This document shows, in pieces, positions 6,001 through 57,506 of a stretch of DNA of 64,000 bases. The DNA lies in contig OY762956.1 of NCBI GenBank assembly GCA_963667055.2, forward strand, positions 1,459,490 through 1,523,489. The letters run 5' to 3'. The DNA comes from Dehalococcoidia bacterium. GTDB lineage: Bacteria; Chloroflexota; Dehalococcoidia; Lucifugimonadales; QGNO01. Positions within the stretch are counted from its first letter, which is position 1, and every line of letters starts with the position of its first letter. The position numbers were made by a program, and so were the translations under genes. Under the pieces are notes generated by a model. That model saw nothing but the letters and a program-made list of their open reading frames with translations, was not told where the DNA came from and did not search any database.

Positions 6001-9000
6001 CCGCCGCGGCCAAGCACCAGTCGGTCGATCTTACGTGGAGCAACCCCGGCAACTCCACCATCACCGGCTGGGAGTACCAGTACAGGACCACCAGCGGGTA
6101 CGGTTCCTGGACGGACGTGCCCAACAGCACGGCGACGACCACTTCCTACACGGTAACTGGGCTGACCAACAACACGTCCCACACCTTCAGGGTTCGCGCG
6201 GTGAACTCCGCCGGCGACGGCGCGGCCTCTGACGGGGCGTCGGCCACGCCCGTCCCCGTCCCCGCCAAGCCCACGGGCCTTTCGGCGTCCCCCAACAACG
6301 GCCAGGTCGTCCTGTCCTGGACCAACCCCAACAACGCCAGCATCCAGAAGTGGCAATACCAGTTCAAGAAGACCGGCGGGTACTTCAAGTGGCGCGACAT
6401 GACCAACAGCGACGCGTCCACCGCGTCCTACGCCGTGAGCAGCCTGAGCAACAACGTCACCCACACCTTCAAGATACGCGCCGTCAACAACAGCGGCGAC
6501 GGCGCGGCCTCTAACGAGGCATCAGCCACGCCCGTGGCCGGCGCTCCGGAAGCGCCCTCCCTGAGCGCCGCCGGCGGCGACGCCCAGGCCGCGTTGAGCT
6601 GGAGCAAGGGCGGCTCCACCCACGTCGTTAGCTGGGAGTACCGGCGGAAGAAGGGATCCGGCAACTACGGCAGTTGGACGGCGGTGCCAAGCTCCGACAA
6701 CTCCACAACGAGCTACACGGTTACGGGCCTGGACAACGGCGCAACCTACACCTTCCAGGTGCGGGGCGTGAACACCTCCGGCGACGGCTCTGTGTCCGAT
6801 GAGGTGTCGGCTCCCACGCTGCCGTCAAAGCCGTCGAACCCGACCGCCGCCGCCAAGACCGGCAAGGCGGCCATCCTGTACACGGAGGGCCAGGTTGACC
6901 TGACCTGGACTGACCCCGATAACGACAGCATCACCGCGTGGCAGTACCAGTACAAGTCCAAGCCCGACGGCGGCAGCTACGGCAGCTACGGCGCCTGGAC
7001 GGACATGACGCCCACCGCGTCCGGCAACAACCTGACGTTCACGATAACGGGCCTGACCCACGGCACGACGTACCGGTTCAAGGTGCGCGCCGCCAACGCC
7101 GCCGGAAACAGCCCGGCCTCCAACGAGTCCGCCGAGGCCAAGCCCGCGCTGCCCACGCCGGCCAAGCCCGCGGGCCTGACGGCCACGCCGAAGGTCCAGA
7201 AGGTCACGCTGAGCTGGACGAACCCCAACAACTCCACCATCACCGGCTGGAAGTACCGGCAGAAGGAGGGCAGCAACAACTGGGGCGGCTGGACGGCCAT
7301 CTCCAACAGCGACAAGGACACCACGTCCGTCGAACTGACCGGGCTGACCAACGACACGACGTACAGCTTCAAGATTCGCGCCGTGAACGCCTCGGGCGAC
7401 GGCGATGAGTCGGATGAGGCGACGGCCATCCCACGCGCCCTGCCCGGCAAGCCTACGGGCTTCAACGCGAGCGGTCGCTTGGGCAGGGCCATGTTGGCGT
7501 GGACCGCGCCCAGCGGCTCCACCGTCACCCACTGGCAGTACCGCTACACCTCCAGCGGCGCAAACGCCATCACGTCGGCGGCGTGGGCCGATGTGCCAGG
7601 CAGCGCGGACAACACCACTAGCTTCAGCACGCCGCCGCTGTCGTACAACACGAAGTACCACTTCCAGGTGCGCGCGGTGAACGGCAGCGGCCCGGGCGCG
7701 GCCTCCGACACGGACTGGGCAGTCCCCGTCGCCGCCAAGCCTTTCAAGCCCAGCAGCTTCACCGCCACCAGCGGCGACGGCCAGGCCGCGCTGCGCTGGT
7801 ACAACACCACGAATCTGTACGTCAGCCCCTACTTCCACTCCTGGCAGCACCGGGTGAAGGAGGGCAACAACGCTTGGGGCGACTGGGTGACCGTGAACGA
7901 GGAGAGTACGTCCAGCAGCGACAGATGGCACACCAGGACCCTCACGGGCCTGGACAACAACAAGACCTACACCTACCAGGTGCGCTCCGCCAACGGCCTG
8001 GGCCACAGCCCAGTCTCGGCGGAGGCGTCGGTCATACCTCTGGCCCGCCCGACCAAGCCCGCGGGCCTGAGCGGAACCGGCGGCGACGGCAGGGCTACGC
8101 TGTCCTGGACGGCGGCCACCGACGTCAGTACGACGGGCTGGGGCTACCAGTACCTGGCGTGGCGCGTCGCCAACGACGGCACAGAGGCCATACCCGGCAA
8201 CGCCCAGGTAACGCTGAATTGGACGCATACGGACAACACCAACATCTCCAAGTGGCAGTACACCAACTACAACCACACCCCATGGACGGACGTCTCCGGC
8301 GGCGCGTCGGCCCGGCAGGTGACCGTGAGCAGCCTCACCAACGGCACGGCCTACACCTTCGGGGTGAGGGCCTTGGACTCCGGCGGCAATCTCGTCGCCG
8401 GGACCGCCAAGTCCGCGGTGAGCGCGATGCCCACGGCGGCCGGCGGCTGGCGGCACGTCTCCAACAGCGACCACACCACCACCAAGGCGACGCTGTACCT
8501 GGCCAACGGCGCGAGCTACAAGGCCCGGATACGCGCCAGCAACAACGCCAAGCCCAACGGCATCGGCCCCGCCTCCGACGCCGTGAGCTTCTACCTCATC
8601 CCCGCCAAGCCGTCGGGCTTCGCGGCGGCGGGCGGCAACACCCAGACGACCTTGTCGTGGACCGGCGCGGACAACTCCACCATCACCAAGTGGCAGGCCA
8701 GGATGCGCACGGGTAACCTCCCGGACTTCGTCGTGGGCCGGGGCAGCAATACCGAGGTCGCGCTGGAATGGACGGGGCCCGAGAACGGCAGCGTCACCAA
8801 GTGGCAGTACAGCGCCGACGGCAGCAACTGGACGGACATCTCGTCCAGCAGCGCGGCCACCAGGTCCCACACCGTCACCGCGAACCTGACCAGCGGCACT
8901 CCCTACGTCTACCGGGTGCGGGGCTACGTCTCTTCGAACAACACCGTTGCCGCCACGGGCCTCAAGGCTTGGACGACGGTCAGCACGAGCGCGACTGCCG

Positions 9001-12000
9001 CTTCGCACATCGTCACCGGCCTGGTGAACGGCATCTCGTACAAGTTCCAGCTGCGGGCGGTCAACGCCGTCGGCGCAAGCGCGCCGTCGGACGAGAAGGC
9101 CGCCACCATGTACCCGGCGCCTCCCACCAACCTGGCGGCGGAACCGGGCGACTCTCAGGTGGTGCTGGTCTGGGACGACCCCAACGACTCCTCCATCACC
9201 GAGTACGAGTACCAGCAGAAGGAAGGGGCTAGCGGCAGCTACGGCTCCTGGACGGACATGACCGGTTCCGGCGCAAACACCATGTCCTACACCGTGACCG
9301 GCTTGACCAACGCCACGCAGTACTCCTTCAAGATACGGGCGGTCAACGCCATCGGCACCGGGGCCGCGTCCGGCGAGGCGTCCGCCACGCCCCAGCCCGC
9401 CCCGTCGCAGCCCACGGGCCTGACGGCCAGCGCCGCAGGCACGACCGTAACGCTCAATTGGGACACGACCACGGACACGGCAATCGACAAGTGGCAGTAC
9501 CGCCAGAAGGAGGGCATCCGCAATTGGGGCGCCTGGGCCAATGTCTCCAACAGCAGTTCGTCCACCAATTCCATGACCCTGCCCAACCTGGACGCGGGCA
9601 CGGTCTACTACTTCCGCGTCCGCGCCGTGAACACCAACAACGTGGCGGGGCCCGGCTCGGCGGTGGCCTCCACCGCAACGACGCCCCTCAAGCCCACGGG
9701 GCTTGTGGCTGTCATCGGCTTCCAGCAGGCCACTCTGTCCTGGAACGACCCTCAGTACCCGTCCATCACCGTGTGGCAGTACCGCTACAAGTCCAAGCCC
9801 AAGGACGGACAGTTCGGCAGCTACGGCGACTGGACGGATATGTCGCCCAGCAAGGCCGACACCAGGACGTTCACGGTGACTGGCCTGACCAGCGGGACGA
9901 CCTACGCCTTCCAGATTCGCGCCAAGAACCCCGCGGGCGACAGCCCCGCGTCGGACGATTCCAACCAGGCCACGCTCCCGGTCCTTCCCGGCGAGCCCCA
10001 GAGCCTCGTCGCCGACAAGTCGTACAGGCAGGCCACCGACGACTTCCAGATAACGCTCAGCTGGACGCTGTCGGCGGACCCCACCATCATCCGGTGGCAG
10101 TACCGGAGCGCCTTGGCGGGCGCCGACCTGAACGCCGCCGGCTGGACGGACATTCCCGCAAGCGACAAGGACACCAGGAGCTACGTCCTGCCCCATAGCA
10201 TCACCGGGGCCGGATACCAGTTCCAGGTGCGGGCGGTCAACCTCGGCGGCGGCGGCGTGGCCTCCAGCGTCGCCAGGGTAACGCTGACCCCGGCGGCCGC
10301 CACCCTCTCCACGATAACGACCGTATCCTACGACACGTCGGATTTGGACTTCGACGTAACGCTGACGTGGGCCGCGCTGAACCCGGCCGACCCGTCCATA
10401 AAGAGATGGGAGTACCGCGCCGCCACCGGAGACGCGGACACCACCGACGCGGGGTGGACGACGCTGCTGGGCGCGGCGCCCTGGAAAACGGCATCGGGCA
10501 CAACCCACTCGTCCACTTCCCACGAGGTGGAGGGCGTGAGCGGCGAGGTGATGCGCTTCCAGGTGCGCGCCGTCAACCGCGCGGGCGACGGCCCCGCGTC
10601 CAACGCGGAGCAGGTGACGTTGCTGCCGGACGAGCCGGTGAACTTCAAGGGCAATGTCACGCAGACGGGGGCCAATCAGGCCACCCTGACCTGGGACGAC
10701 CCCCAGGACGAATCCATCAGCAAGTACCAGTACCGCACAATGGAGGGCAGCCTGGCGGCGGTGGCCGCCGACGGGCAGGCAACCCTCTACTGGCAAAACC
10801 CCAACGACTCGGCCATCACCAAGTGGCAGTACCGCTACAAGTCCAGGCCGGCCTCCGATGAGGAGTTCGGCAGCTACGGCTCATGGACGGACATACCCTG
10901 CGCTTCCCCGTGCCTCGTCAGGACTCTGAATTCCTACGTCATCACCAACCTGACCAACGACACGACCTACACCTTCCAGGTCCGCGCCGTGACCCAAACC
11001 ACCTTGAAGGAGCTCCCCGCAGTGGTCAGCGAGAGCATCGCCAGCGTGGGCAGCGCGGGCGAGATCACCCTCTCCTGGGCAGACCCCAGCGACAGCGACA
11101 TCGTCAAGTGGCGCTACCGGGTCAGAGTTCTCCCCGACACCGGCGAGCCGGACAATCTTGCCGTCGTCACCGCCGGCGGCCAGGCAACCCTCTACTGGGT
11201 GAACCCCAACGACTCCGCCGTAACCCGGTGGCAGTACCGCCGGAAAGAGGGAACGGGCAGCTTTGGCAACTGGACGAACATACCCTGCTCCTGGCCGTGC
11301 GCGGCCAAGACCCAGAGGTCATACACCGTCACCGGCCTCACCGACGGCACGGCCTACACCTTCCAGGTGCGGGCGGTCAAGCCCAACGTGGAGAGACCCC
11401 TTGCGGCGGTGGGCAGCTGGAGCATCGGCAACATCGGCTCCAACGCGCGGGTCACGCTGTACTGGGCCAGACCGAACAACAGCAGCTTTATCGACAAGTA
11501 CCAGTACAGTACCGACGGCAGCACGTGGACCGACATACCCAACACCGGCTCCACCACCACCTCATACACGGCGACGGGCCTGGCCGACGGCACGGAGTAC
11601 ACCTTTGAGATACGCGGCGTGTCGCAGAACGGCTCGATCGTGACCACCGCGGGGCCGTGGAACTTCACCGCCTACACCGCCAGCAACAACAGGGCGACGC
11701 TCACCTGGGCCGACCCCAACAACAGCAGCATTGTGAAGTACCAGTACCGGAGCAGGACGGGAATGGGCAGCTTTGGCAGCTACTGGACGAACATATCCTC
11801 CAGCGACGAAGGGACCACCTCCTACAACGCTTACTGCGCCACCGGGCGGGTCTGCACTGTGGAGGTGCGGCCCGTCGTCCATCCCGCCTCCGACCAGGCC
11901 ACGGCAACGCCTCCCAACGGCACGACGTCCAACTTCGTAGCGGGAACCGTGGAGGGCGGCTGGACGGACGTCTTGACCAGCCCCAACTTCAGCCCGTCCA

Positions 12001-30370: not shown

Positions 30371-31156
30371 ATGACGGATAACAGGGGCGTTGCCTTCAAC
30401 CGGCTGGTCGATTTGCTGGCCGCGCTGCGCGGTCCGCATGGATGCCCCTGGGACAAGGAGCAGACGCACGACTCCTTGAAGCGGTACCTTCTGGAAGAGT
30501 CGCACGAGGTCTTCGAGGCCATCGACCATAACCCTGAGAAGCTCCCCGAGGAATTGGGCGACGTCCTGCTCCAGGCGCTGTTCCACGCCCAGATTGCCGC
30601 CGAGGAGGGTCGCTTCACCATAGACGACGTGCTGGAATCGCTGCGCGACAAGCTGGTCAGACGCCACCCTCACGTATTCGGCGAGCGGAAGGTGAAGGAC
30701 GCGCGGGAAGTCGAGGCCAACTGGGAGGAGTTGAAGCGCGGAGAGCGCAGCGGCCAGCCGGGCGCATCGCTGCTGGGCAGCGTGCCGCAGGCCATGCCCG
30801 CGCTTGCTCACAACCAGCTTGTCCAGGAACGCGCCGCCCGCTCCGGCTTCGACTGGGAGCGGATCGACGGCGTGCTGGACAAAGTCGCCGAGGAGGTCCG
30901 GGAGATCCGGGAAGCGCGGTCGCAAGAAGAGAGGACAAGGGAGCTTGGCGACCTGCTCTTCTCGATGGTCAACGCGGCGCGATGGATGGGCATCCAGTCG
31001 GAGGACGCCCTGCGGCAAGCCGCCGCCCGCTTTCGCAGTCGCTTCCTGGAGATGGAACGCCTCGCCAATGAACGGGGTCTCGCCTTCACCGGCCTCTCGC
31101 TTGAAGAAAAGGACTCGCTATGGAATGAGGCCAAGGCGCGTGAGGGGGAAGGGTAG
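30371..31156 (+). CDS. mazG: Nucleoside triphosphate pyrophosphohydrolase MazG
   Basis: LRGPHGCPWDKEQTHDSLKRYLLEESHEVFEAI...ELGDVLLQ, and a second MazG repeat EEVREI....ELGDLLFSMVNAARW. Confidence 0.88.
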   Translation: MTDNRGVAFNRLVDLLAALRGPHGCPWDKEQTHDSLKRYLLEESHEVFEAIDHNPEKLPEELGDVLLQALFHAQIAAEEGRFTIDDVLESLRDKLVRRHPHVFGERKVKDAREVEANWEELKRGERSGQPGASLLGSVPQAMPALAHNQLVQERAARSGFDWERIDGVLDKVAEEVREIREARSQEERTRELGDLLFSMVNAARWMGIQSEDALRQAAARFRSRFLEMERLANERGLAFTGLSLEEKDSLWNEAKAREGEG

Positions 31157-31174
31157 GGGGCAGTCTCCCCAACC

Positions 31175-32041
31175 CTACAAAACCCGCGCGCTTACCGCCA
31201 GCCAGTTCCGCTCGATGCCAAGGACGCCGTCCTCGTCCGGCTGGCCGTGCCGCTCCATGGCCGGTGCCACCGCCAGGCGCATCGCTTCCGTAGCGGCTTG
31301 CGGATTGTATCCGTGAAGGGCTCCCGCCGCGTACTGCTGGAAGCCGCTGATATGCTCCATGGCCAGCCGCCGTATGTGCACCGCGCTCTCCTTCACCTCT
31401 TCCACCTTGAAGCCGACCTTTTGCAGCAGTGCCTCGTAGTGGTCCCTGGATAGGAAGTTGCTCGCCGACGGTCTGCCGTCCATCTGCTCTCTGCGTATCC
31501 CCTTGGACTTCAGGTACTCCACGGCGCGCCTCACCTGCGCCCTGTAGAACGGTATGGTCTCAGGCGGACGGGACTCGGCGTAGAACGCCGTGTTGAAGAA
31601 GAGCCATCCGCCCTTTCTCAACGCCCGTTTCATGGAGGCCAGCGCCCTTTCCTGGCTTTCGGCCTCCAGGTAATGGATGCCGTTGCCCCACAGAACCGCG
31701 TCCACGCTCTCATCGGGCAGCGTCATCTCTTCCGCCGGGCAGTGGATGAGCTCCAGACCCCGAACTTTCGATTCCAGGTTCAGCTTGGCCTGCTGCAAAG
31801 CGTCGCCGCTCTGGTCCAGGCAAACCACGGTCGGAGTGTGCCAGTGCTTCGGCAGGTTCTCCACAAAGATGTGCACCATGGTGCCTATGCCGGTTGCTAT
31901 GTCCAGCAGTCGGTCAATCTCCTTGCTGCCCTTTTGCACCATGGAGTCTATCCAACCGCGCACTATGTCCGTGTTGACGTCGCGGTACTCCTCGGTATCC
32001 GCAAACGGCTCATACACAAATTCAGTCTGATGAATCGTCAT
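31175..32041 (-). CDS. Class I SAM-dependent methyltransferase
   Basis: Motif I LLDIATGIGTMV, CLDQSGDAL, LRKGGWLFFNT. Confidence 0.75.
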   Translation of the reverse strand: MTIHQTEFVYEPFADTEEYRDVNTDIVRGWIDSMVQKGSKEIDRLLDIATGIGTMVHIFVENLPKHWHTPTVVCLDQSGDALQQAKLNLESKVRGLELIHCPAEEMTLPDESVDAVLWGNGIHYLEAESQERALASMKRALRKGGWLFFNTAFYAESRPPETIPFYRAQVRRAVEYLKSKGIRREQMDGRPSASNFLSRDHYEALLQKVGFKVEEVKESAVHIRRLAMEHISGFQQYAAGALHGYNPQAATEAMRLAVAPAMERHGQPDEDGVLGIERNWLAVSARVL

Positions 32042-33358: not shown

Positions 33359-34104
33359 AGTTTCACCAGCCCGCAGTCGACGTTTATGGTCTGACCGGTT
33401 ATAGCCCAGGCCTCCTCCGACGCCAGGAACACCACCGCGCCGGCCACCGCCTCCGGCGACAACGTGCGCGGTATGGCCGCCCTGGCCAGCAGAGCCTCTC
33501 TCAGCTGGCTGCTGGCGTCCTCCGTGAGGTCGGTTTCGATGAAACCGGGGTTCAGTGTGTTCACCGTGACGCCGCGCTTGCCGTACTCCTGGGCCAGCGA
33601 GCGGGTCAGCCCTTCCAGTCCCGCCTTTGCCGCCGTGTAGTTCGCCTGTCCGCCAAGCCCAATGCGGGAGGCGATGCTCCCTATGTTGATTATTCTGCCC
33701 CAAGACCGCCGTATCATCAACCTCAGCACGAGTTGGGACAGCCTGAAGGGGGCGTTCAGGTCGAGGTCCACCACGTGGTCCCAGGCGTCGCCCATCCTGA
33801 GCGCCACGCCATCCTCCCTGGTGCCCGCGTTGTTGACCAGGATGTCGATTCCGCCCAACTGCTCGACGGTGTGCTCCACCAGCCGCTGCCTGTCCGCGTC
33901 TACGGTGATGTCCGCTTGGATGGCGAGAGGTCTGCGTCCGGTGCAGCGTTCCACTTCCTCGGCGACCGTTTCCGCGCTCGCCGATTCCCTGTGGTAGCAG
34001 AACGCGACCCGCGCCCCGGCAGCCGCCAAATCCTTGACGATCGCCCGGCCCAGGCCCCTGCTGCCGCCCGTTACAAGCGCACTCTTTCCGCTGAGGTCAA
34101 ACAC
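33355..34104 (-). CDS. fabG: 3-oxoacyl-ACP reductase
   Basis: TGGSRGLGRAI, NNAG, and the S..Y...K triad context YTAAKAGLEGLTRSLAQE. Confidence 0.85.
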   Translation of the reverse strand: MFDLSGKSALVTGGSRGLGRAIVKDLAAAGARVAFCYHRESASAETVAEEVERCTGRRPLAIQADITVDADRQRLVEHTVEQLGGIDILVNNAGTREDGVALRMGDAWDHVVDLDLNAPFRLSQLVLRLMIRRSWGRIINIGSIASRIGLGGQANYTAAKAGLEGLTRSLAQEYGKRGVTVNTLNPGFIETDLTEDASSQLREALLARAAIPRTLSPEAVAGAVVFLASEEAWAITGQTINVDCGLVKL

Positions 34105-34194
34105 GCAAGCCTCTCATACGACCGATTGCCCTTATGGTACAACACATTGGGCATAGAGGTTAAGAGCGTAGGCCTGCTGCTTAATTTCACTCTG

Positions 34195-34617
34195 TTAACT
34201 GCTCACCAACTCTATGTGGTCACCATAGCGCTGAAAGTCTGCCGTGTTGAACGTGAGTAACCTGCGTTCTCCATGTGTCAGCATGGTAGCCACGATGTTG
34301 GCGTCGTGAATCTGCCTTCCTCCAACGGGAACCTCTCGACATAGCACTAACAGCAACTCAGTCACGGCTGGGCCATCCTCAAGTATCTCGAGACTGCCGA
34401 TCAGCCTGCTCACATCATCAAAGGCTTCCGCGCGAGTTATGCCCACCGGCCAGGTCTGCGGACGTGTAACTACGGATAGGTACTCGCGTATTACCTGACG
34501 GCTAATCCTCAGCGGTTCAGGGTTTAGAAAAGCGCGCTCCAGGCTCGCCCTGGCCGCGTCGTGGCCCGGCGCGCTGGGAATGCGGGAAGCTACCAGTACA
34601 TTGGTGTCTATGAACAT
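34195..34617 (-). CDS. vapC: PIN-domain toxin (VapC family), no cognate antitoxin gene visible
   Basis: MFIDTNVLV.....QIHDANIVATMLTHGERRLLTFNTADFQRY. Only 62 nt lie between its ATG and the stop of the next gene, and the longest in-phase upstream peptide is about 14 aa. Confidence 0.8.
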   Translation of the reverse strand: MFIDTNVLVASRIPSAPGHDAARASLERAFLNPEPLRISRQVIREYLSVVTRPQTWPVGITRAEAFDDVSRLIGSLEILEDGPAVTELLLVLCREVPVGGRQIHDANIVATMLTHGERRLLTFNTADFQRYGDHIELVSS

Positions 34618-34679
34618 GGCAGGCTAACTTACCTCATCCTTCATACTGGTGACTCGTTTAGAGATCACGAATCTAGCTT

Positions 34680-35600
34680 CTACTTATTCCAGGGAGGCTT
34701 GATGGCGAATACCAATTCGCTCTCTACGTGTCGCCGGACACGCTCATCGCCATCTACCGGATGGAACCACAACTCAAATTCCGCACCGGACCTCATTTCC
34801 CTGTAGATAAGGTTGTTGATTCTGCAATTCGTCTCTTGGCCGCCCTTGTAGCAATTCCGAGGCGATATGCCGCCATATCCCCTTGGCCCCCAGCGGTCTT
34901 CTAGGTTCTGGCATTCTCCGATATAAAGCGGATTCTCGCCAGCCATAAGGGCATAGACACCGCTGCGCTGCCAACCCAACGCAGTCCGAAATCGGCAGAA
35001 TGGTCCCTCGCCGTATCGGTTCAGTGGCAGGTTCCTCTCATTACGATACTTGGACTGAGGCAAATCTCCGATAACTTCGCCACGTTCGTCGCGCTCTGGT
35101 AGAATCGATCCGACGAGACTGAATGAGTGTCCTGCAACAGTGCGATATTTGTCCTTACTCTCAGCTTCTAAAGGATGACGATGCAGATCGTCAACCCTAT
35201 CCTCGTAGAGGTCTTCTCGCCTGAGACTCAGTCCCTTGGGCCACACCGCAGTAGGGTGGACAGGCCAAACCTCATCGAGCGGAGGCCTGCGTACCGGCTT
35301 GGGGTGGGTTCGACGGAACAGCAGCGTCTCGGTGTCCATGTCCACCTCCGCCGTTTCCCACCCGGCGACGCTCCAAGCAAGAGCGTGACTGTGACCGTTG
35401 CCACCCCGCTGATTTCCCCACCAGGGCCGGTGTAATCGCGCGGATAGAGGCAACTCGAATCCTACGACCGCCTCTATTTCGCCAAAGGAGGTTCTCCACT
35501 CTTGTACCTGAAGGCTGTTCAGGTGCGTGTACAGTCTCCGGTACTTGCCCCGCATTACCATCCGTAGGTACTCGTCTTTTCTATCTATGACCATTGTCAC
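34680..35600 (-). CDS. Uncharacterised protein with a C-terminal GIY-YIG nuclease domain and an N-terminal 'LP.SAR.HR.WW.N' module
   Basis: GIY-YIG core SGVYALMAGENPLYIGECQNLEDRW....N....VESELVFAIKPPWN (nt ~34683-34990). The N-terminus carries SFGEIEAVVGFELPLSARLHRPWWGNQ...HALAWSVAGWE. GC content is lower than the surroundings. Confidence 0.6.
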   Translation of the reverse strand: MTMVIDRKDEYLRMVMRGKYRRLYTHLNSLQVQEWRTSFGEIEAVVGFELPLSARLHRPWWGNQRGGNGHSHALAWSVAGWETAEVDMDTETLLFRRTHPKPVRRPPLDEVWPVHPTAVWPKGLSLRREDLYEDRVDDLHRHPLEAESKDKYRTVAGHSFSLVGSILPERDERGEVIGDLPQSKYRNERNLPLNRYGEGPFCRFRTALGWQRSGVYALMAGENPLYIGECQNLEDRWGPRGYGGISPRNCYKGGQETNCRINNLIYREMRSGAEFELWFHPVDGDERVRRHVESELVFAIKPPWNK

Positions 35601-35698
35601 TTTCCTTTGTACTAGATTGCCTGATCAAAAGTCAGACGCTCAAGTACATTGTAGTTAGTTAGTGACTAAGGCGCAAGTGCTCCACAGAGCAAGCAAGG

Positions 35699-36751
35699 CT
35701 ATTCTTGAGCTTGCTGACTGCTCCTGAGTCCGTTGAGGAACTTTTCCACCTCATCTACGCTTTGAAAGGAACCTTCCAACCCTAGTGCTTCCTGTCTTTC
35801 ATCATCGGAGCTTCCACTCCAGGATCTTACGCTATATGTTTGTTTACTGTTCTGGGGAAGCCAGTCCTTCAACTGCTCCAAATCCACTTTCAGGTAGCAC
35901 TTGAACCTGGTAGCGTGAGCGGTAAATACTAGCCCGCTCCCTTGCTCGTTTGGAACAGCCTCAACGATCAACACAGTCCGCTGCATACCGTTATCAAGAC
36001 GCCGAGCGTACCAGATTCTCTTATTGTATGGTCTAGCTAGGAGAATACCCTGAACACCATCTCTAACCTTACGAAACATCTCACCGATACCATTTTCGTG
36101 AGCCATAGTTTCAAGTTCCTCTAGCGTATTTCTGGAAGTCCTCTTCGATTTGGACTGCGCCTTTGCCTCAGCCTCCGTAGGTTCTATTAGGTACACTTGG
36201 GCAAGAAACTGCTTACCATCGCTATCGGTGAAATGCTGTACCGTGGCAACGTTGATAGGCACTTTAAAGTCGGACAGATAGCGTATGATCCGCTTCGTAC
36301 TGTCGTCCATAGCCTCGGCAACTATTAGAGAACGGTGGTTGTCGTTCAGAACGTCGGGTAAGGGCGTCTCAAACCTCTCCGAAAATGCCTTCTCCAATGA
36401 AGGCAAGCTCTTCTTTTTGAGGTACGGGTCGGCTATTGCCAGAAGTTCATCTTTCGAAAGGTCCTTAACCCAAGAGGCGTAATCTAGGGCTTGGGCGGTA
36501 ACCTCACGCGGAGTTTTACCTCTTTTCAACTCTAAAACCACCGTATCTCCCCATCTATCCATACATAACAGGTCTATAGTCCCATCGAAAGGTGTCCTAA
36601 CTTGCCGACCAATCACCAGCAAGTCGGGCTCCAGAACAGCAATGTCGCTTTCCAGCCAGCGTTCCAACCGCTCTTCCAAAGAGATTTCGTTGCTTGGTAT
36701 TTCCTTGGGTTCTTCGTTTGTCGTTATTTCCCATAGTTTTATCTTTTGCAC
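35699..36751 (-). CDS. NucS/DUF91-like PD-(D/E)xK nuclease-domain protein with an unassigned ~250-aa C-terminal region
   Basis: LEERLERWLESDIAVLEPDLLVIGRQVRTPFDGTID60LLCMDRWGDTVVLE74LK76RGKTPREVTAQALDYASWV. Markedly AT-richer than its neighbours (about 47% GC in sampled lines). Confidence 0.6.
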   Translation of the reverse strand: MQKIKLWEITTNEEPKEIPSNEISLEERLERWLESDIAVLEPDLLVIGRQVRTPFDGTIDLLCMDRWGDTVVLELKRGKTPREVTAQALDYASWVKDLSKDELLAIADPYLKKKSLPSLEKAFSERFETPLPDVLNDNHRSLIVAEAMDDSTKRIIRYLSDFKVPINVATVQHFTDSDGKQFLAQVYLIEPTEAEAKAQSKSKRTSRNTLEELETMAHENGIGEMFRKVRDGVQGILLARPYNKRIWYARRLDNGMQRTVLIVEAVPNEQGSGLVFTAHATRFKCYLKVDLEQLKDWLPQNSKQTYSVRSWSGSSDDERQEALGLEGSFQSVDEVEKFLNGLRSSQQAQE

Positions 36752-36825
36752 AAAGACCTCCTTTGCGCGTTTCTAGGTGGCTCTTCAAGTACGCATTGAG
36801 CTTTCAGACCTGCCCGCCCCCTCCA

Positions 36826-39759
36826 TCACCCCGCCAGCGCGCTACGCAGTATCTCGGCGACGTGCTCCGGCTCACGGCCCGTGCCGTCCATCACCTGGTG
36901 GCGGCAGGAGAACCCCGTAATGGCGATGCGCGCTTCCGGATTGGAGCGCACCGCCGGGAAAAGCCGCCTTTCTCCAATTGCCATCGACATATCGTAGTGC
37001 TCCTTCTCGTAGCCGAACGACCCCGCCATGCCGCAGCACCCTGAATCGACCACCTCCACTTCCAGGCCGGGCACGAGTTTCAGCGCCGCCACCGACGCCG
37101 CAGTGCCCACCGCCGCTTTCTGGTGGCAGTGGCCGTGGAACAGCGCCTTCTGAGGCGTGCTGCTGAACTCCAGGTCAAGCTCTCCGTCTCTCTGCAGTTT
37201 GACCAGCAACTCCTCCAGCAGGTACGAATTCTGCGCTACCGTTCTCGATTCCTCGCTGCGCAGTAGGTCCGGATACTCGTCGCGCAGGGTGAGCAGGCAG
37301 CTCGGCTCGGTGCCCACTATAGGCACGCCCTGGCTGGCAAAGGAGTATAGCCGCTCCACGTTGACGCGGGCGTTCTCCCTGGCGCGTTCCAGCATCCCCT
37401 TGGAGATCATGGGCCGTCCGCAGCAGACCTTATCCGCAAGCACGACTTCATATCCCGCCGCTTCCAGCAACTCTACGGCGGCCATGCCCACCTGCGGCTC
37501 GTTGTAATCGGTGAAGGTGTCGTGGAACAGCACAACCCGCCCTCTGACCGCGCTTCTTCCGTTCGACGCCCTCTTCTTGAACCGGCTTGGGAAGGTCGAT
37601 CTGGTCAGCGCAGGGGTCTTGCGGTCTTTGTGCAAACCCAGGAACCGGTGCATCAGCCTCCGGCTCAGCGGATTCCTGGTAGCAAAGTTGGCCAGCGGCG
37701 CAAGGGGCGCGCTCAGGGCGTTGATACCGGCGATACCGGCCATGAGCCGCGCCCGCAGGGGCATGCGGTGCTTCTTGTAGTAGGCGTTGAGGAACTCGTA
37801 CTTCAGCTTGGCCATGTCCACGTTGGATGGACATTCCCCCTTGCAGCCCTTGCACTCCAGGCACAGGTCCAGTACCTGGTGCAGACGCTTGCCGGTGAAT
37901 TCGGACGAAGGCAGCGCGCCTGATAGCACCGAACGCAGGGCGTTGCTCCGACCCCGCGTCGAGTGCTCCTCCTCGCGTGTCACCATGTACGACGGGCACA
38001 TGGTGCCGCCCAGCATCTTGCGGCACGCGCCCACTCCGTTGCACAACTCCACCGAGCGGGCGAACCCGCCGTCCGCCGAGAAGTCCAGGACGGTGTCCGG
38101 CTCCATGGCCCTGTAGGCGGGGCTGAGCCTCAGGTTCTCCGTCAATCCCGGCGTGTCCACTATCTTGCCGGGGTTCATAATGCCTTTGGGGTCGAAGGTG
38201 CGCTTCACCTCGCGGAAGGCGTCGTACAGGACGCTGCCGAACATCTTCTCCGTCCACACGCCCCGCACGATGCCGTCGCCGTGCTCTCCGCTCAGCGAGC
38301 CGCCGTACTCCAGCACCAGGTCGCTCACCGCCGTGGCTATCGAGACCAGCTTGTCCAACCCCTCGTCCGTCTTGATGTTGACCATGGGCCTGATGTGCAG
38401 GCATCCCACGCTGGCGTGGCCGTAGTACCCCGCGACCGTATCGTGGTCGCGCACCATCTCATCGAAGCGCCGCACGTACTCCGGCAGCTTTTCCGGCGGC
38501 ACGGCGGTGTCCTCCACGAACGGCAGCGGCTTGGAGTCGCCCTTGACGCTCATCAGCAGACCGAGGCCGGCCCTCCGTATCTCCCAGACGTTGGCCTGCT
38601 CCTCCGGACTCACGGCGGGCACGCAGGCATAGCCCAGCCTGCGGCGCTCCATGTCGCGCTTCAGGCCGCTTATCTTGGCCTGTAACTCCCTCTCCGACTC
38701 CCCGTAGAACTCGACCAGCAGCAGAGCGTCGGGGTCGCCCTCCACGAAGGTCATGCGACGGGAGAAGCTGGACGACTCCCTGGTGCGCTGCAGGAGCATG
38801 CGATCGACCAGTTCCACGGCGGACGGGCCGTGTTCCAGCGTGGCCAGGGTGCCTTCCATGGCCTCTATGAGGCTGCGGAAGTGCAACACGGCCACAGCCT
38901 TCATGCTGGGCAGTGGCTCCAGGTTGAGCTTGGCCTCGGTGACCGCGGCCAGCGTTCCCTCGGAGCCGACGATCATCCCGGCCATGTTCACTTCGTCCGC
39001 CGCCAGCATCGCGTCCAGGTTGTAGCCCGATACGCGGCGCATGATCTTGGGAAAGCGGCGCTCTATTTCGCCGCGCTGCTCCCCGGCGATGCGCCTGATG
39101 TCGGCGTATATCCGGCCTTCCAGTCCATCCCCGTTCAGCTTGGCTTCCAGCGCCCCGCCATTCAGCGGGCCAAACGAGGCGGGCGTCCCGTCCGACAGCG
39201 CCACGCTGACCTCTTTCACGTGGTCTGAGGTCTTGCCGTAGAGCACCGAGTGGCTGCCGCAGGAGTTGTTGCCGATGGCTCCGCCCACGGTGGCGCGGTT
39301 GCTGGTGGTGGGGTCGGGGGGGAAGTGCAGTCCGTGAGGCCGCAGGGCGTGATTGAGTTCGTCCAGGGTGATGCCGGGCTGCGCCCTGGCCCATCGCTCC
39401 TCCGCGTTGACCTCCACCACACCGTGCATGTACTTGGAGAAGTCCATGACCACGGCGTGGTTCACCGTCTGTCCGGCAAGCCCGGTGCCGCCGCCCCTGG
39501 GAAGCGCCGCCGTGCCCGACTCGTGGCATATCTCGATGACTGCCGCTACATCATCGGCGTTGCGGGGAATGACCACGCCCACGGGGTCCATCCGGTAGAT
39601 GGAAGCGTCCGTGCTGTACATGGCCTTGGAGAAAGCGTCGAACCGCACCTCGCCTTGTACGCGGCGGCGCAGTTCGGCTTCCAGAGCGCCTGTAGCAGTG
39701 GTCATGGTCTCATTCACGCCGATACTGTAGCGCACGGAATGGGGCGGGGCAACAGCCAT
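36826..39759 (-). CDS. FAD-linked oxidase fused to a 4Fe-4S/CCG-domain subunit (GlcD-GlcF-like; D-lactate/glycolate dehydrogenase family)
   Basis: N-terminal FAD-binding PCMH domain (PRGGGTGLAGQ), Cys clusters (CNGVGACRKMLGGTMCPS, CLECKGCKGECPSNV), and C-terminal CCG repeats (CCGRP.., CCGMAGSFG). The start may be ATG 39705 (MTTATGALE..). Confidence 0.8.
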   Translation of the reverse strand: MAVAPPHSVRYSIGVNETMTTATGALEAELRRRVQGEVRFDAFSKAMYSTDASIYRMDPVGVVIPRNADDVAAVIEICHESGTAALPRGGGTGLAGQTVNHAVVMDFSKYMHGVVEVNAEERWARAQPGITLDELNHALRPHGLHFPPDPTTSNRATVGGAIGNNSCGSHSVLYGKTSDHVKEVSVALSDGTPASFGPLNGGALEAKLNGDGLEGRIYADIRRIAGEQRGEIERRFPKIMRRVSGYNLDAMLAADEVNMAGMIVGSEGTLAAVTEAKLNLEPLPSMKAVAVLHFRSLIEAMEGTLATLEHGPSAVELVDRMLLQRTRESSSFSRRMTFVEGDPDALLLVEFYGESERELQAKISGLKRDMERRRLGYACVPAVSPEEQANVWEIRRAGLGLLMSVKGDSKPLPFVEDTAVPPEKLPEYVRRFDEMVRDHDTVAGYYGHASVGCLHIRPMVNIKTDEGLDKLVSIATAVSDLVLEYGGSLSGEHGDGIVRGVWTEKMFGSVLYDAFREVKRTFDPKGIMNPGKIVDTPGLTENLRLSPAYRAMEPDTVLDFSADGGFARSVELCNGVGACRKMLGGTMCPSYMVTREEEHSTRGRSNALRSVLSGALPSSEFTGKRLHQVLDLCLECKGCKGECPSNVDMAKLKYEFLNAYYKKHRMPLRARLMAGIAGINALSAPLAPLANFATRNPLSRRLMHRFLGLHKDRKTPALTRSTFPSRFKKRASNGRSAVRGRVVLFHDTFTDYNEPQVGMAAVELLEAAGYEVVLADKVCCGRPMISKGMLERARENARVNVERLYSFASQGVPIVGTEPSCLLTLRDEYPDLLRSEESRTVAQNSYLLEELLVKLQRDGELDLEFSSTPQKALFHGHCHQKAAVGTAASVAALKLVPGLEVEVVDSGCCGMAGSFGYEKEHYDMSMAIGERRLFPAVRSNPEARIAITGFSCRHQVMDGTGREPEHVAEILRSALAG

Positions 39760-53005: not shown

Positions 53006-56008
<3,003 letters not shown>

Positions 56009-56056
56009 CACATATAGCCTCTGACAGAACGTTTCTCTTTCCCTATTTTCGACCAT

Positions 56057-56131
56057 CGCGGGGTGGAGCAGTGGCAGCTCGTCGGGCTCATAACCCGAAG
56101 GTCGCAGGTTCGAGTCCTGCCCCCGCTACCA
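56057..56131 (+). tRNA. Initiator tRNA-fMet (anticodon CAU), CCA encoded
   Basis: CGCGGGG-TG-GAGC-AGTGGCA-GCTC-G-TCGGG-CTCATAA-CCCGA-AGGTC-GCAGG-TTCGAGT-CCTGC-CCCCGCT-A-CCA. It has a 1:72 mismatch (C:U) and three G:C pairs closing the anticodon stem, and is very similar to E. coli tRNA-fMet. Confidence 0.9.
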
Positions 56132-56144
56132 GGAACAACGAGAC

Positions 56145-56180
56145 AAGCTCTCCTCAAATTTGAGGAGAGCTTCACTTATT
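56145..56180 (+). terminator. Rho-independent terminator candidate after 23S-tRNA-fMet
   Basis: Perfect 14-bp inverted repeat aagctctcctcaaa/tttgaggagagctt, followed by cacttattt (a weak T-tract). Confidence 0.55.
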
Positions 56181-56197
56181 TAGAGGAGGTGCCGTAT

Positions 56198-56908
56198 ATG
56201 GATAGACTGTACTCAGACGATCCAGCTGTGAGAGAAAGAGATGCCGCAAAGTACCGCGTATTCCACAAGAAGGTCTCTATACCTTCAAGATGGAAGGGCG
56301 ATTGGAACTGTCTGCTGAATAGCAGAGATGCCAATGACGGATTGAAATGGCCCGAAAGCTTGTTGCGAATCCTGAGGACTCGTAAGTGGCCTGAGTATAC
56401 TTTTGGCACCGCAAACGCGTCGTGCCTTGTAGTATTAAATAGACCAGGTGACCCTAGTGCAAACAGTGTAGAGGAAACCTTCATTCCGCCCAATCTGCCG
56501 GTTTTGGGAGGGATACCACATCCTCATAATGCCTTCTGGTATCCCAGCTACAATAACAAGCCAACTTGGGGTTCATTGCATAGATACCTAGTGCCGGCCT
56601 TTGCTAGGCTCAAGCATCCTTGGAGTCAAGTAATGACGACAAACCTCACAACAACTCCCGCGCGGACTGGTACAACAGATAGCTGGGCGAATTTGCGAGC
56701 GGTGAACAGTGGATTACTTCAGTTCTTGGTGAATCTTTGCCAACCGCGGGTTGTCTTGCTGTGCGGCGACCCGGTGCAGAAGGCCGCAGTCAACTGGAGT
56801 CCACCCGCAAGTGTTGAAGTAGTGAGATGCCAACATCCATCATATCAGCATTGGAGTGGAGACGGACCGCGGGTGCAGGCAACTATTAAGAAGATTCTTT
56901 TTCGGTAG
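56198..56908 (+). CDS. Hypothetical protein with uracil-DNA-glycosylase-superfamily-like motifs
   Basis: ATG 56198 after GAGGAGG. CLVVLNRPGDPS (motif-A-like), MTTNLTTTP, VVLLCGDPV, and RCQHPSYQHW (HPS motif-B-like). The ORF-track start at 56063 lies inside the tRNA and is rejected. Lower GC than the bulk. Confidence 0.4.
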   Translation: MDRLYSDDPAVRERDAAKYRVFHKKVSIPSRWKGDWNCLLNSRDANDGLKWPESLLRILRTRKWPEYTFGTANASCLVVLNRPGDPSANSVEETFIPPNLPVLGGIPHPHNAFWYPSYNNKPTWGSLHRYLVPAFARLKHPWSQVMTTNLTTTPARTGTTDSWANLRAVNSGLLQFLVNLCQPRVVLLCGDPVQKAAVNWSPPASVEVVRCQHPSYQHWSGDGPRVQATIKKILFR

Positions 56909-56927
56909 TGGATCAGGTCTACCGACT

Positions 56928-57506
56928 CTAGCACCTGAGACCCATGCGGCCCGGCAGATTGCGGCGCTTCAGAATCTCCCGCGCTTTGGAGTGGGAGAAC
57001 CAGACCATCTTTCCGGTTATGGAGTCGTAGGCGTGTAGGTCCAGCTCGGTGAAGAACTTCATGTAGAACAGCCCGGCGGCCCGCAACGACATATCCGATT
57101 GCTGGGCCACGGCCAGCTTGGCGAAGCTGTCGCCGGCGCCCATGATGGCCTGCGCCGTTTCCGCATCGTGCTCTTCGTAGGTGCAGACGGCGAGCAGCAT
57201 TTCGGCAAGGCTGTCCTGCCCGGCCAGCCACTTCCAGTAGTCCTCCAGGGCGGCTGTTTGCCCGTCCTGCCTGTGAGCGTGGCAGAGGAGGAAGATGCAG
57301 TTGGCCTGCTGGCCGCGCAGTAGAGGCGCAAGCTCCTTCGGCCTGTCGATGCGCGCGGCGCCTCCGCCAACCAGGTCGACCTCCTTCCTTACCAGCACGT
57401 TGCTTATGCGGTCGCAGAACTCCGATTCCCAGCCCAGCACGTTCCGCGATCCGTCCACGACAAGGAGCCGAGGCTTGCCCGGTATGGTGATCTGACTCCA
57501 GAACAT
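56928..57506 (-). CDS. Hypothetical 192-aa protein, minimal CHAT/caspase-like fold suggested
   Basis: Strand-His CIFLLCH(A)H, strand-Cys LLAVCTYEE, then IMGAGDSFAKLAVAQQSDMSLRAAGLFYMKFFTEL. This resembles the CHAT C-terminal 'aGa..vva..w.v.d..a..f...FY..L' pattern. Assignment is by eye only. Confidence 0.3.
   Translation of the reverse strand: MFWSQITIPGKPRLLVVDGSRNVLGWESEFCDRISNVLVRKEVDLVGGGAARIDRPKELAPLLRGQQANCIFLLCHAHRQDGQTAALEDYWKWLAGQDSLAEMLLAVCTYEEHDAETAQAIMGAGDSFAKLAVAQQSDMSLRAAGLFYMKFFTELDLHAYDSITGKMVWFSHSKAREILKRRNLPGRMGLRC

Follow-up and report, generated by a model that had tools for sequence, protein, structure and literature searches.

Does a pair of adjacent, AT-rich nuclease genes make up one defence system, or does it bring together units of separate origin? 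The question is raised by a block at 34.2-36.75 kb of a 64,000-nucleotide stretch from a Dehalococcoidia bacterium (contig OY762956.1; the whole stretch is called the window below). Here, three co-directional open reading frames (ORFs) lie on the minus strand between a FAD-oxidase/Fe-S gene (36826-39759) and fabG-fabF: gene A for a NucS-like nuclease, gene B for a fusion of the domain DUF7662 with a GIY-YIG nuclease, and a gene for a VapC-like PIN protein. A preliminary description had combined A and B into a candidate two-gene defence or addiction system wedged against an antitoxin-less VapC. It placed both genes correctly, as the ORF list confirms, on the minus strand and 98 nt apart when B is counted from GTG 35600 (306 aa). 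Our analysis leads to a different arrangement. The low-GC block is probably not one system but a stack of selfish or defence-type units, each acquired independently, with A as a separate unit and B and the PIN gene as an operon into which the GIY-YIG part was inserted. The conflict-related or selfish character earlier suspected for the block extends to all three genes.

The base composition of the block is layered. GC content at third codon positions (GC3) is 0.80-0.85 in host genes, 0.62 in the PIN gene, 0.67 in the first 134 codons of B, 0.55 in the rest of B and 0.52 in A, and the lowest-GC kilobase of the 64-kb window lies inside A. The count of 28/60 GC at positions 36001-36060 given earlier is exact, and with GC3 values of 0.52-0.67 the block is indeed compositionally foreign.

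Homologues of A and B are found apart. Scanning with the B alignment, one genome per species, yielded 80 loci; together with loci L001 and L002 this makes 82 loci with the GIY-YIG module in 81 distinct places (L002 and L004 are the same site). No A homologue occurs at any of the 82 within the fetched flank of up to 8 kb. Scans with the A alignment yielded 80 metagenome and 9 viral loci, and DUF7662, a B-type GIY-YIG domain and a close PIN homologue are each absent from all 89. A recurrent neighbour of A was not found either, the largest neighbour cluster covering 4 of the 80 metagenome loci, so that by neighbour clustering A behaves as a single gene with no obligatory partner, like the candidate defence system PDC-S11. 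The closest homologue of B (80% identity) lies at L001, where a PIN gene follows it and insertion sequence (IS) elements take the upstream place of A, and L200 carries an A homologue (62% identity) without B. The only other locus at which A adjoins a DUF7662 gene is L003, with the order FAD-oxidase, A, 134-aa DUF7662, PIN, fabG, fabF and methyltransferase. Its DUF7662 gene has no GIY-YIG part, and owing to its synteny with the window L003 does not count as an independent case of A paired with B. On the comparative evidence, A and B are thus not a two-gene system and A is an independent unit, because it matches PDC-S11, belongs to a large family, has no recurrent neighbour, co-occurs with B at 0/89 and 0/82 loci, is dissociated from B at L001 and L200 and differs from it in GC3. 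There is one apparent exception: at L179 an A homologue precedes a short ORF with a generic GIY-YIG domain (Pfam 31 bits, B-module profile 14.7). This ORF falls outside the B family, and the adjacency, at 1/89 loci, was judged coincidental.

Gene A belongs to a named candidate family, where the preliminary description had been unable to map the pair to any named system. The PDC-S11 profile PDLC04916 of PADLOC-DB matches A with E=2.7e-66 and 222 bits (aa 3-207, profile positions 4-202 of 358), and four more PDC-S11 profiles match with E-values from 3e-35 to 1e-13. The motifs GTID60LL, VVLE74LK76 and QALDY are present in the sequence; across 27 homologues D60 and E74 are invariant and K76 is conserved in at least 90%. 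The AlphaFold2 (AF2) model (mean pLDDT 76) finds its best matches in the Protein Data Bank (PDB) in EndoMS (5gke) and NucS (2vld) with a Foldseek probability of 1.0. The earlier assignment of A to the PD-(D/E)xK nucleases, defined by a catalytic D and an E-x-K on an alpha-beta-beta-beta-alpha-beta core, is correct because D60, E74 and K76 are conserved and the fold is that of EndoMS/NucS. Sequence searches of the PDB with A gave only a marginal NucS match (E=0.2), and a PHROGs search gave nothing significant. Of the approximately 250 residues after the signature that had been left unassigned, those up to residue 207 now fall into the PDC-S11 region; residues 208-350 remain as described, with no match of the sequence in Pfam or PADLOC or of the profile among PDB sequences.

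The A family comprises 1938 clusters at 90% identity, the best 120 of which are full-length, and 3286 clusters at 50% identity (E ≤1e-3). Many relatives share only the N-terminal ~205 residues with A, including plasmid-borne ones, which RefSeq names 'DUF91 / endonuclease NucS domain-containing protein'. These alignments show that PDC-S11 proteins keep their nuclease half constant and exchange the C-terminal one, and A is a new C-domain variant within the family. Of A, only the N-terminal domain was found in the viral set, on nine contigs beside type I restriction-modification (R-M) genes. Among these, the IMG/VR contigs L184-L190 encode N-domain-only relatives (~40% identity, aa 6-210) adjoining hsdM/hsdS genes of type I R-M systems and an integrase; these viral-classed contigs are probably prophages or defence islands. 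In a structural search of BFVD, the entire A model aligned over 344 columns with the uncharacterised Gp54 of Bacillus phage G (G3MBC4, 296 aa; Foldseek E=8e-11), so a phage may encode a full-length structural analogue of A including its C-domain. L003 contains a second, divergent PDC-S11-like gene (8455-9519, minus strand; 354 aa, PADLOC E=6e-35, Pfam NucS_C 42 bits) between convergent methyltransferase and MazG genes, and the matching window site, 31156-31175, is only an 18-nt gap. Single PDC-S11-like nuclease genes seem to drop into intergenic sites independently.

The other unit of the block becomes visible when the N-terminal part of B is considered by itself. A search with the first 136 residues of B recovered 573 clusters at 90% identity, mostly from Chloroflexota-type metagenome-assembled genomes (MAGs), and almost all of the best 120 of these are proteins of exactly 134 aa with 71-91% identity. 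The closest, P0241 (91%), ends with ...LYEDRV, where B runs on into its GIY-YIG part. At every locus examined, a DUF7662 gene of 134-143 aa is followed after 7-8 nt by a PIN gene of 140-141 aa. This order is found in seven independent contexts (window/L003, L001, L011, L084-093, L094-101, L197 and L198/199), and the identities to the window proteins co-vary between the DUF7662 part and PIN (85/87, 80/83, 81/78, 78/78, 72/72, 73/72 and 47/61%). The PIN assignment is secure by Pfam (E=1.9e-11, 45 bits vs a cut-off of 23.6), and the acidic residues D4, E45, D105 and D127 are conserved in eight orthologues. In 7/7 contexts the pair is preceded by a ~20-nt element, TCACTAACT(A/C)ACTACAAT, with TTGCGC 17 nt upstream; the putative operator sequence is TCACTAACTAACTA. 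As in type II VapBC systems, a small gene lies directly upstream of the PIN gene and is conserved with it as a pair. By this analogy we infer that the 134-aa DUF7662 gene and its PIN neighbour represent a widespread, hitherto undescribed toxin-antitoxin family of the type II, VapBC-like kind, with a winged-helix-like antitoxin. The VapC is not antitoxin-less, contrary to the preliminary description: its conserved upstream partner is contained in B, as residues 1-134.

Several loci add detail to the distribution of this pair. The protein P0207, at first a candidate PIN-DUF7662 fusion, shows, after DUF7662, a scrambled tail that leads into PIN. A bicistron with a frameshift is its most likely origin, and it was used only as evidence of adjacency. 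At L094 and L095 (both 4017-4337) the gene after DUF7662 encodes 106 aa with no PIN match in otherwise identical luciferase/cupin contexts, a hint that the toxin gene has decayed or been frameshifted in some strains. An unrelated pair of a small gene (89-97 aa) and a PIN gene (141 aa) lies ~1.6 kb upstream of DUF7662-PIN in the Dak2/DeoC context of L085-L093 (1136-1851), and HicB, PaREP1 and VapB-PIN genes are found near the A homologue of L200; toxin-antitoxin modules are very abundant in these genomes. The viral contig scan did not recover the 134-aa DUF7662 protein.

Modelling shows how B is assembled. Its start is most likely ATG 35594 (304 aa), as in homologues beginning MxxD, rather than the upstream GTG 35600 (306 aa) of the preliminary description, whose division of the protein into three parts holds: the N-terminal module is Pfam DUF7662, the centre is a tail predicted to be disordered and the C-terminus is a GIY-YIG core. 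The AF2 model (mean pLDDT 84.5) contains two folded domains joined by a disordered linker. The folded N-part spans aa 7-97, and its DUF7662 domain resembles, at low Foldseek probability (0.44), the winged helix-turn-helix (HTH) domain of CodY (2b0l); it is predicted to be a winged-helix-like DNA-binding domain. The segment from aa ~98 to 148 is predicted to be disordered (pLDDT <50), and its first part, aa 98-136, corresponds to the C-terminus of the free 134-aa proteins and is kept in all PIN-linked 134-aa proteins.

The GIY-YIG module (aa ~150-306, pLDDT >90) has the fold of the UvrC GIY-YIG domain (Foldseek probability 1.0, target TM-score 0.62-0.69), and R.Eco29kI is matched with 0.91. In 20 full-length homologues Y216, Y226, G228 and R236 are invariant and E293 and N305 conserved in at least 90%. 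Motifs, catalytic residues and fold agree in placing the C-part in the GIY-YIG superfamily, in support of the core recognised earlier. The Pfam GIY-YIG score of B is sub-threshold (15 bits), that of the homologue P0136 is 25.1 against a cut-off of 22.6; a PDB sequence search with B returned nothing, and PADLOC has no match for B or its GIY-YIG module. The module occurs alone (~170 aa), in tandem, behind DUF7662 or DUF7669, and in front of DUF7662, an HTH domain and a nucleotidyltransferase (NTase); examples are the tandem double GIY-YIG protein P0136, P0186 (DUF7669 and GIY-YIG) and P0189 (GIY-YIG, DUF7662, HTH and nucleotidyltransferase). It ranges over many bacterial phyla, archaea and a few viral contigs (6 in the viral contig scan), often near R-M genes or integrases. 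DUF7662, for its part, is N-terminal in GIY-YIG, HNH and PIN proteins and recurs in the NTase fusion. At L196 (2510-3751), on the Caballeronia plasmid pNK84, it forms the N-terminus of an HNH endonuclease, and because it also stands in front of an HNH nuclease, DUF7662 may be a general nucleic-acid-targeting module, a point that tempers its reading as an antitoxin.

The junction between the two halves of B can be located to the nucleotide. In an alignment of the window, L003 and L001, L003 lacks exactly the window positions 35192-34627. This cassette of 566 nt is present in the window and L001 and absent from L003 and all unfused loci compared. In six unfused loci the junction reads ...GAGGANAGGNNN TAG cc(4-6 nt) ATG/GTG TTCATAGACACC; the insert of the window and L001 follows codon 134, the last sense codon, and precedes the retained TAG, and the canonical junction 'TAG cc.... 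ATGTTCATAGACACC' is kept to its right. The N-part of the window B is 91% identical to the unfused P0241 and only 52-68% identical to solo fused DUF7662-tail-GIY-YIG proteins, so by sequence comparison the fusion shared by the window and L001 arose recently, through insertion or recombination. The C-part is 64-71% identical to that of other DUF7662-tail-GIY-YIG proteins. On the same N-part identities, a single ancient fusion was rejected as the origin of B. In the Pseudomonadales MAG OY282460 (L011, 7983-9651) a DUF7662-GIY-YIG gene (278 aa), a DUF7662-only gene (~135 aa) and a PIN gene stand in tandem, an arrangement that could be a source of B-like fusions by recombination between two DUF7662 copies. 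Presence or absence at a defined site between close relatives is also what is expected of a homing endonuclease. The features of the locus are collected in Table 1.

Table 1 Features of the low-GC block and its surroundings (window positions).
Feature	Position	Strand	Description
Gene A	35699-36751	minus	ORF, 350 aa; stand-alone NucS-like PD-(D/E)xK nuclease, PDC-S11 type
A nuclease core, aa 25-100	36452-36679	minus	D60, E74, K76, Q87, Y91; Pfam NucS_C 21 bits, sub-threshold
A C-terminal domain, aa 208-350	35702-36130	minus	alpha/beta, pLDDT about 85-95; variable part of the family
Putative promoter/operator of the DUF7662-PIN unit	35648-35676	minus	-35 TTGCGC 35676-35671, 17-nt spacer, -10 TACAAT 35653-35648, within TCACTAACTAACTACAAT
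Gene B	34680-35594	minus	304 aa from ATG 35594; DUF7662 + GIY-YIG fusion
B DUF7662 domain, aa 21-97	35310-35540	minus	Pfam PF24698, E=2.8e-13, 49.9 bits vs cut-off 26; pLDDT >90
B conserved tail, aa 98-136	35193-35309	minus	LDEVWPVHPTAVWPKGLSLRREDLYEDRV; pLDDT <50; putative PIN-neutralising segment
GIY-YIG cassette	34627-35192	minus	566 nt: linker, ~155-aa module, TAG stop 34680-34682, 53-nt 3' tail with Shine-Dalgarno (SD)-like AAGGATGAGG
Vestigial TAG	34624-34626	minus	original stop of the 134-aa gene; then 'cctgcc' spacer, PIN ATG at 34617
PIN/VapC-like gene	34195-34617	minus	140 aa; putative toxin of the DUF7662-PIN unit
Intergenic repeat	34148-34164	minus	CTTAACCTCTATGCCCA; downstream of PIN; one copy in window, 0.02 expected by chance

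While the insertion itself is read from aligned sequences, its functional consequence is proposed from the architecture of the genes. A would most likely be a DNA endonuclease that works on its own; its variable C-domain would determine the target or the trigger, in line with what has been proposed for candidate defence nucleases encoded by a single gene. B and PIN would form one operon driven by the conserved promoter/operator, which in its ancestral form encoded a DUF7662 protein of 134 aa and, behind it, a PIN RNase of 140 aa. The DUF7662 domain may bind the operator and autoregulate the operon, and the disordered C-terminal tail may wrap and inhibit the PIN toxin; loss of a labile antitoxin would then free the RNase. 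The fusion B would keep the whole antitoxin-like part and add an apparently active DNA nuclease, with the PIN gene left intact behind what appears to be an SD-like sequence newly supplied by the insertion. Catalytic residues are, according to the alignments, intact in all three nucleases. A bolder form of the proposal seems rather unlikely to us: that the antitoxin was captured by a GIY-YIG cassette homing via the operator-binding domain, or that one protein both neutralises an RNase and cuts DNA, with DUF7662-PIN as an undescribed, abundant toxin-antitoxin family.

A number of observations weigh against a stack made of a PDC-S11 nuclease and a toxin-antitoxin operon. On the side of A, only 56% of the PDC-S11 profile is spanned, its C-terminal half is not matched, and for the A C-domain no counterpart was found in Pfam, in PADLOC or among PDB sequences. 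PDC-S11 itself is an unvalidated phage defence candidate; experimental validation was not found in a literature that only lists or correlates the system (one 2026 preprint was not covered). Many of the A-family metagenome contigs are short, and the absence of neighbours is therefore less informative there. Moreover, the A stop codon lies 22 nt from the B -35 box and the promoter/terminator scan predicted no terminator, so A and B may be co-transcribed by read-through. On the side of the operon, the winged-helix similarity of DUF7662 is weak, the domain matches no known antitoxin family (B yields DUF7662 in Pfam and nothing in NCBIfam), and PIN scores 65.6 bits on the NCBIfam VapC subfamily TIGR00028, below its cut-off of 73.6. 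The tail is also kept in four solo DUF7662-GIY-YIG proteins (P0123, P0125, P0127 and P0132) with no PIN gene nearby, and may therefore have a role other than or besides PIN binding. Toxicity, neutralisation and defence are here putative roles, proposed from gene architecture.

These points have to be set against what other explanations would require. Joint action of A and B, possibly with PIN, as one new multi-nuclease defence or abortive-infection system would account for three co-directional, tightly spaced, low-GC genes without a predicted terminator, and for the order A, DUF7662, PIN common to the window and L003. That common order belongs, however, to a syntenic locus (FAD-oxidase, fabG, fabF, methyltransferase) that lacks the GIY-YIG domain. 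With co-occurrence at none of the 82 and 89 other loci, B and PIN without A in L001, no recurrent neighbour of A and three parts that differ in GC3, we regard joint action as very improbable. Even less credible, and close to negligible, is a role for A as a housekeeping NucS/EndoMS mismatch-repair endonuclease. A does resemble the C-terminal nuclease domain of NucS in sequence and fold, but it scores 29 bits against a cut-off of 216 (NF003270), 18.5 against 252 (NF002876) and 21 against 24 (Pfam NucS_C), its nuclease domain is N-terminal and the NucS N-domain is absent. Its GC is the lowest in the window, a divergent paralogue is inserted elsewhere in L003 and absent from the window, and homologues sit on plasmids and next to R-M genes.

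For the operon, an alternative is that DUF7662 and PIN are no toxin-antitoxin pair. DUF7662 could then be only a transcription factor or a nucleic-acid-binding specificity subunit acting with PIN, the two making up, for example, a nuclease of two components, and B would simply be a GIY-YIG endonuclease that is targeted to DNA for restriction or defence. The recurrence of DUF7662 at the N-terminus of GIY-YIG, HNH and NTase fusions, the conservation of the tail in solo fusions without PIN and the position of GIY-YIG family members near type I/II R-M genes and integrases are all consistent with this. We nevertheless consider it quite improbable in view of the classic type II hallmarks: two proteins of 134 and 140 aa, 7-8 nt spacing, the gene order, a folded, putatively DNA-binding domain with a disordered tail, a conserved promoter with a repeat-rich operator, multi-copy spread and insertion between housekeeping genes. 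A further proposal refines the insertion step of the toxin-antitoxin explanation and does not replace it. GIY-YIG enzymes include classic homing endonucleases, and the cassette could be a homing-type selfish element that the antitoxin DNA-binding domain guides to the operator of 'empty' DUF7662-PIN operons, cutting there and being copied in by repair from flanking homology (DUF7662 gene left, PIN right). The polymorphism at an identical site in close relatives, with the old stop codon retained, fits this, as does an N-part nested among unfused genes (91%) joined to a C-part closest to fused or free GIY-YIG modules, which points to transfer between alleles. It also counts in favour that the module turns up in many phyla, in archaea and on a few viral contigs, be it free, in tandem or behind other N-terminal domains. 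Only two fused-plus-PIN loci were seen against hundreds of unfused clusters, however, so spread would be inefficient; cleavage of the empty allele is a proposal from sequence comparison, and ordinary homologous recombination between DUF7662 genes, as at L011, explains the pattern equally well. Solo fused genes near R-M genes suggest a defence rather than a homing role. We consider homing unlikely. We thus retain the stack of independent units, with a separate A and a DUF7662-PIN operon carrying a GIY-YIG insertion.

Further features were noted in the window and in L003. A ~35-nt sequence, CTTAACCTC(C/T)ATGCCAA(A/G)GGT(G/A)GTGTACCA, is found on both sides of the DUF7662-PIN unit in L003 (4140-4205 and 5150-5235), and the window keeps only the copy downstream of PIN (34148-34164). 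Two origins are conceivable for this repeat: integration of the toxin-antitoxin unit, which would have left it as a footprint or target-site duplication, or duplication of the fabG promoter region. A generic promoter/terminator scan and a repeat finder applied to 34000-37000 gave nothing useful, and the conserved promoter was missed by a simple sigma-70 scan. A second low-GC patch lies at 55750-57000 (1-kb GC 0.51-0.52). Pfam matches none of the ORFs there, which are 56063-56908 on the plus strand and, on the minus strand, 55241-55624, 55542-55859 and 56928-57506.

For the locus, this means that a false lead is removed, as we see no new two-nuclease defence system here. The Pfam family DUF7662, of which we found no mention in the literature searched, gains a first functional context as the conserved upstream partner of a specific PIN clade, and it recurs as an N-terminal module, both in GIY-YIG and HNH nucleases and in a fusion protein with an NTase domain. 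If the toxin-antitoxin pair is real, it would add a new antitoxin DNA-binding fold to VapBC, and the window would offer a natural, sequence-resolved insertion of a nuclease cassette into an antitoxin gene, usable to study recombination between selfish nucleases and toxin-antitoxin systems. Should the homing or chimera proposal hold, B would be an antitoxin-nuclease chimera that joins toxin-antitoxin addiction with homing-endonuclease mobility.

Comparison with known systems places the parts of the block in different families. Gene A resembles PDC-S11 in that its first ~205 residues match five profiles, that it is a single gene without fixed partner and that relatives are carried by plasmids or adjoin type I R-M genes; it differs in its position among housekeeping genes instead of a defence island and in a C-domain without counterpart. 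With NucS/EndoMS (2vld, 5gke) it shares the PD-(D/E)xK core, the D...E-x-K residues and the QxxxY helix, whereas domain order and partners differ and the TM-score is only 0.26-0.36 over about 150 columns. Foldseek finds a weaker structural likeness of the nuclease core to Card1/Can2 (6wxw, 0.82) and Shedu (SduA, 8ps5, 0.75), but no PADLOC profile of these matches A and the accessory domains differ.

The DUF7662-PIN unit has the layout of type II VapBC, with a small upstream gene for a predicted DNA-binding N-domain and disordered tail, then a PIN protein of ~140 aa with four acidic residues. It also shares with these systems a common promoter with a repeat-containing operator, and it is multi-copy, horizontally spread and placed between housekeeping genes. 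Unlike a VapB of AbrB, RHH, PHD or MerR type, the upstream protein is DUF7662 (134 aa), and the antitoxin-like gene of the window carries a C-terminal GIY-YIG nuclease. A description of an antitoxin-GIY-YIG fusion was not found in a literature search on GIY-YIG with antitoxin and PIN domain. Finally, B has the fold of GIY-YIG nucleases such as UvrC (1yd3), R.Eco29kI, Hpy188I and the I-TevI type, their modular pairing with a DNA-binding domain and their mobile, patchy distribution. Its catalytic spacing (Y216-10-Y226-10-R236 and E293-12-N305) matches that of UvrC. Its family differs from them by a ~20-aa longer insert, GYGxISPRNCxxGGQxTNCRxN, with an invariant Cys, and by an N-terminal beta-hairpin extension. 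In comparison with I-TevI, the B module is not in an intron or intein, and its DNA-binding domain is N-terminal, where that of I-TevI is C-terminal.

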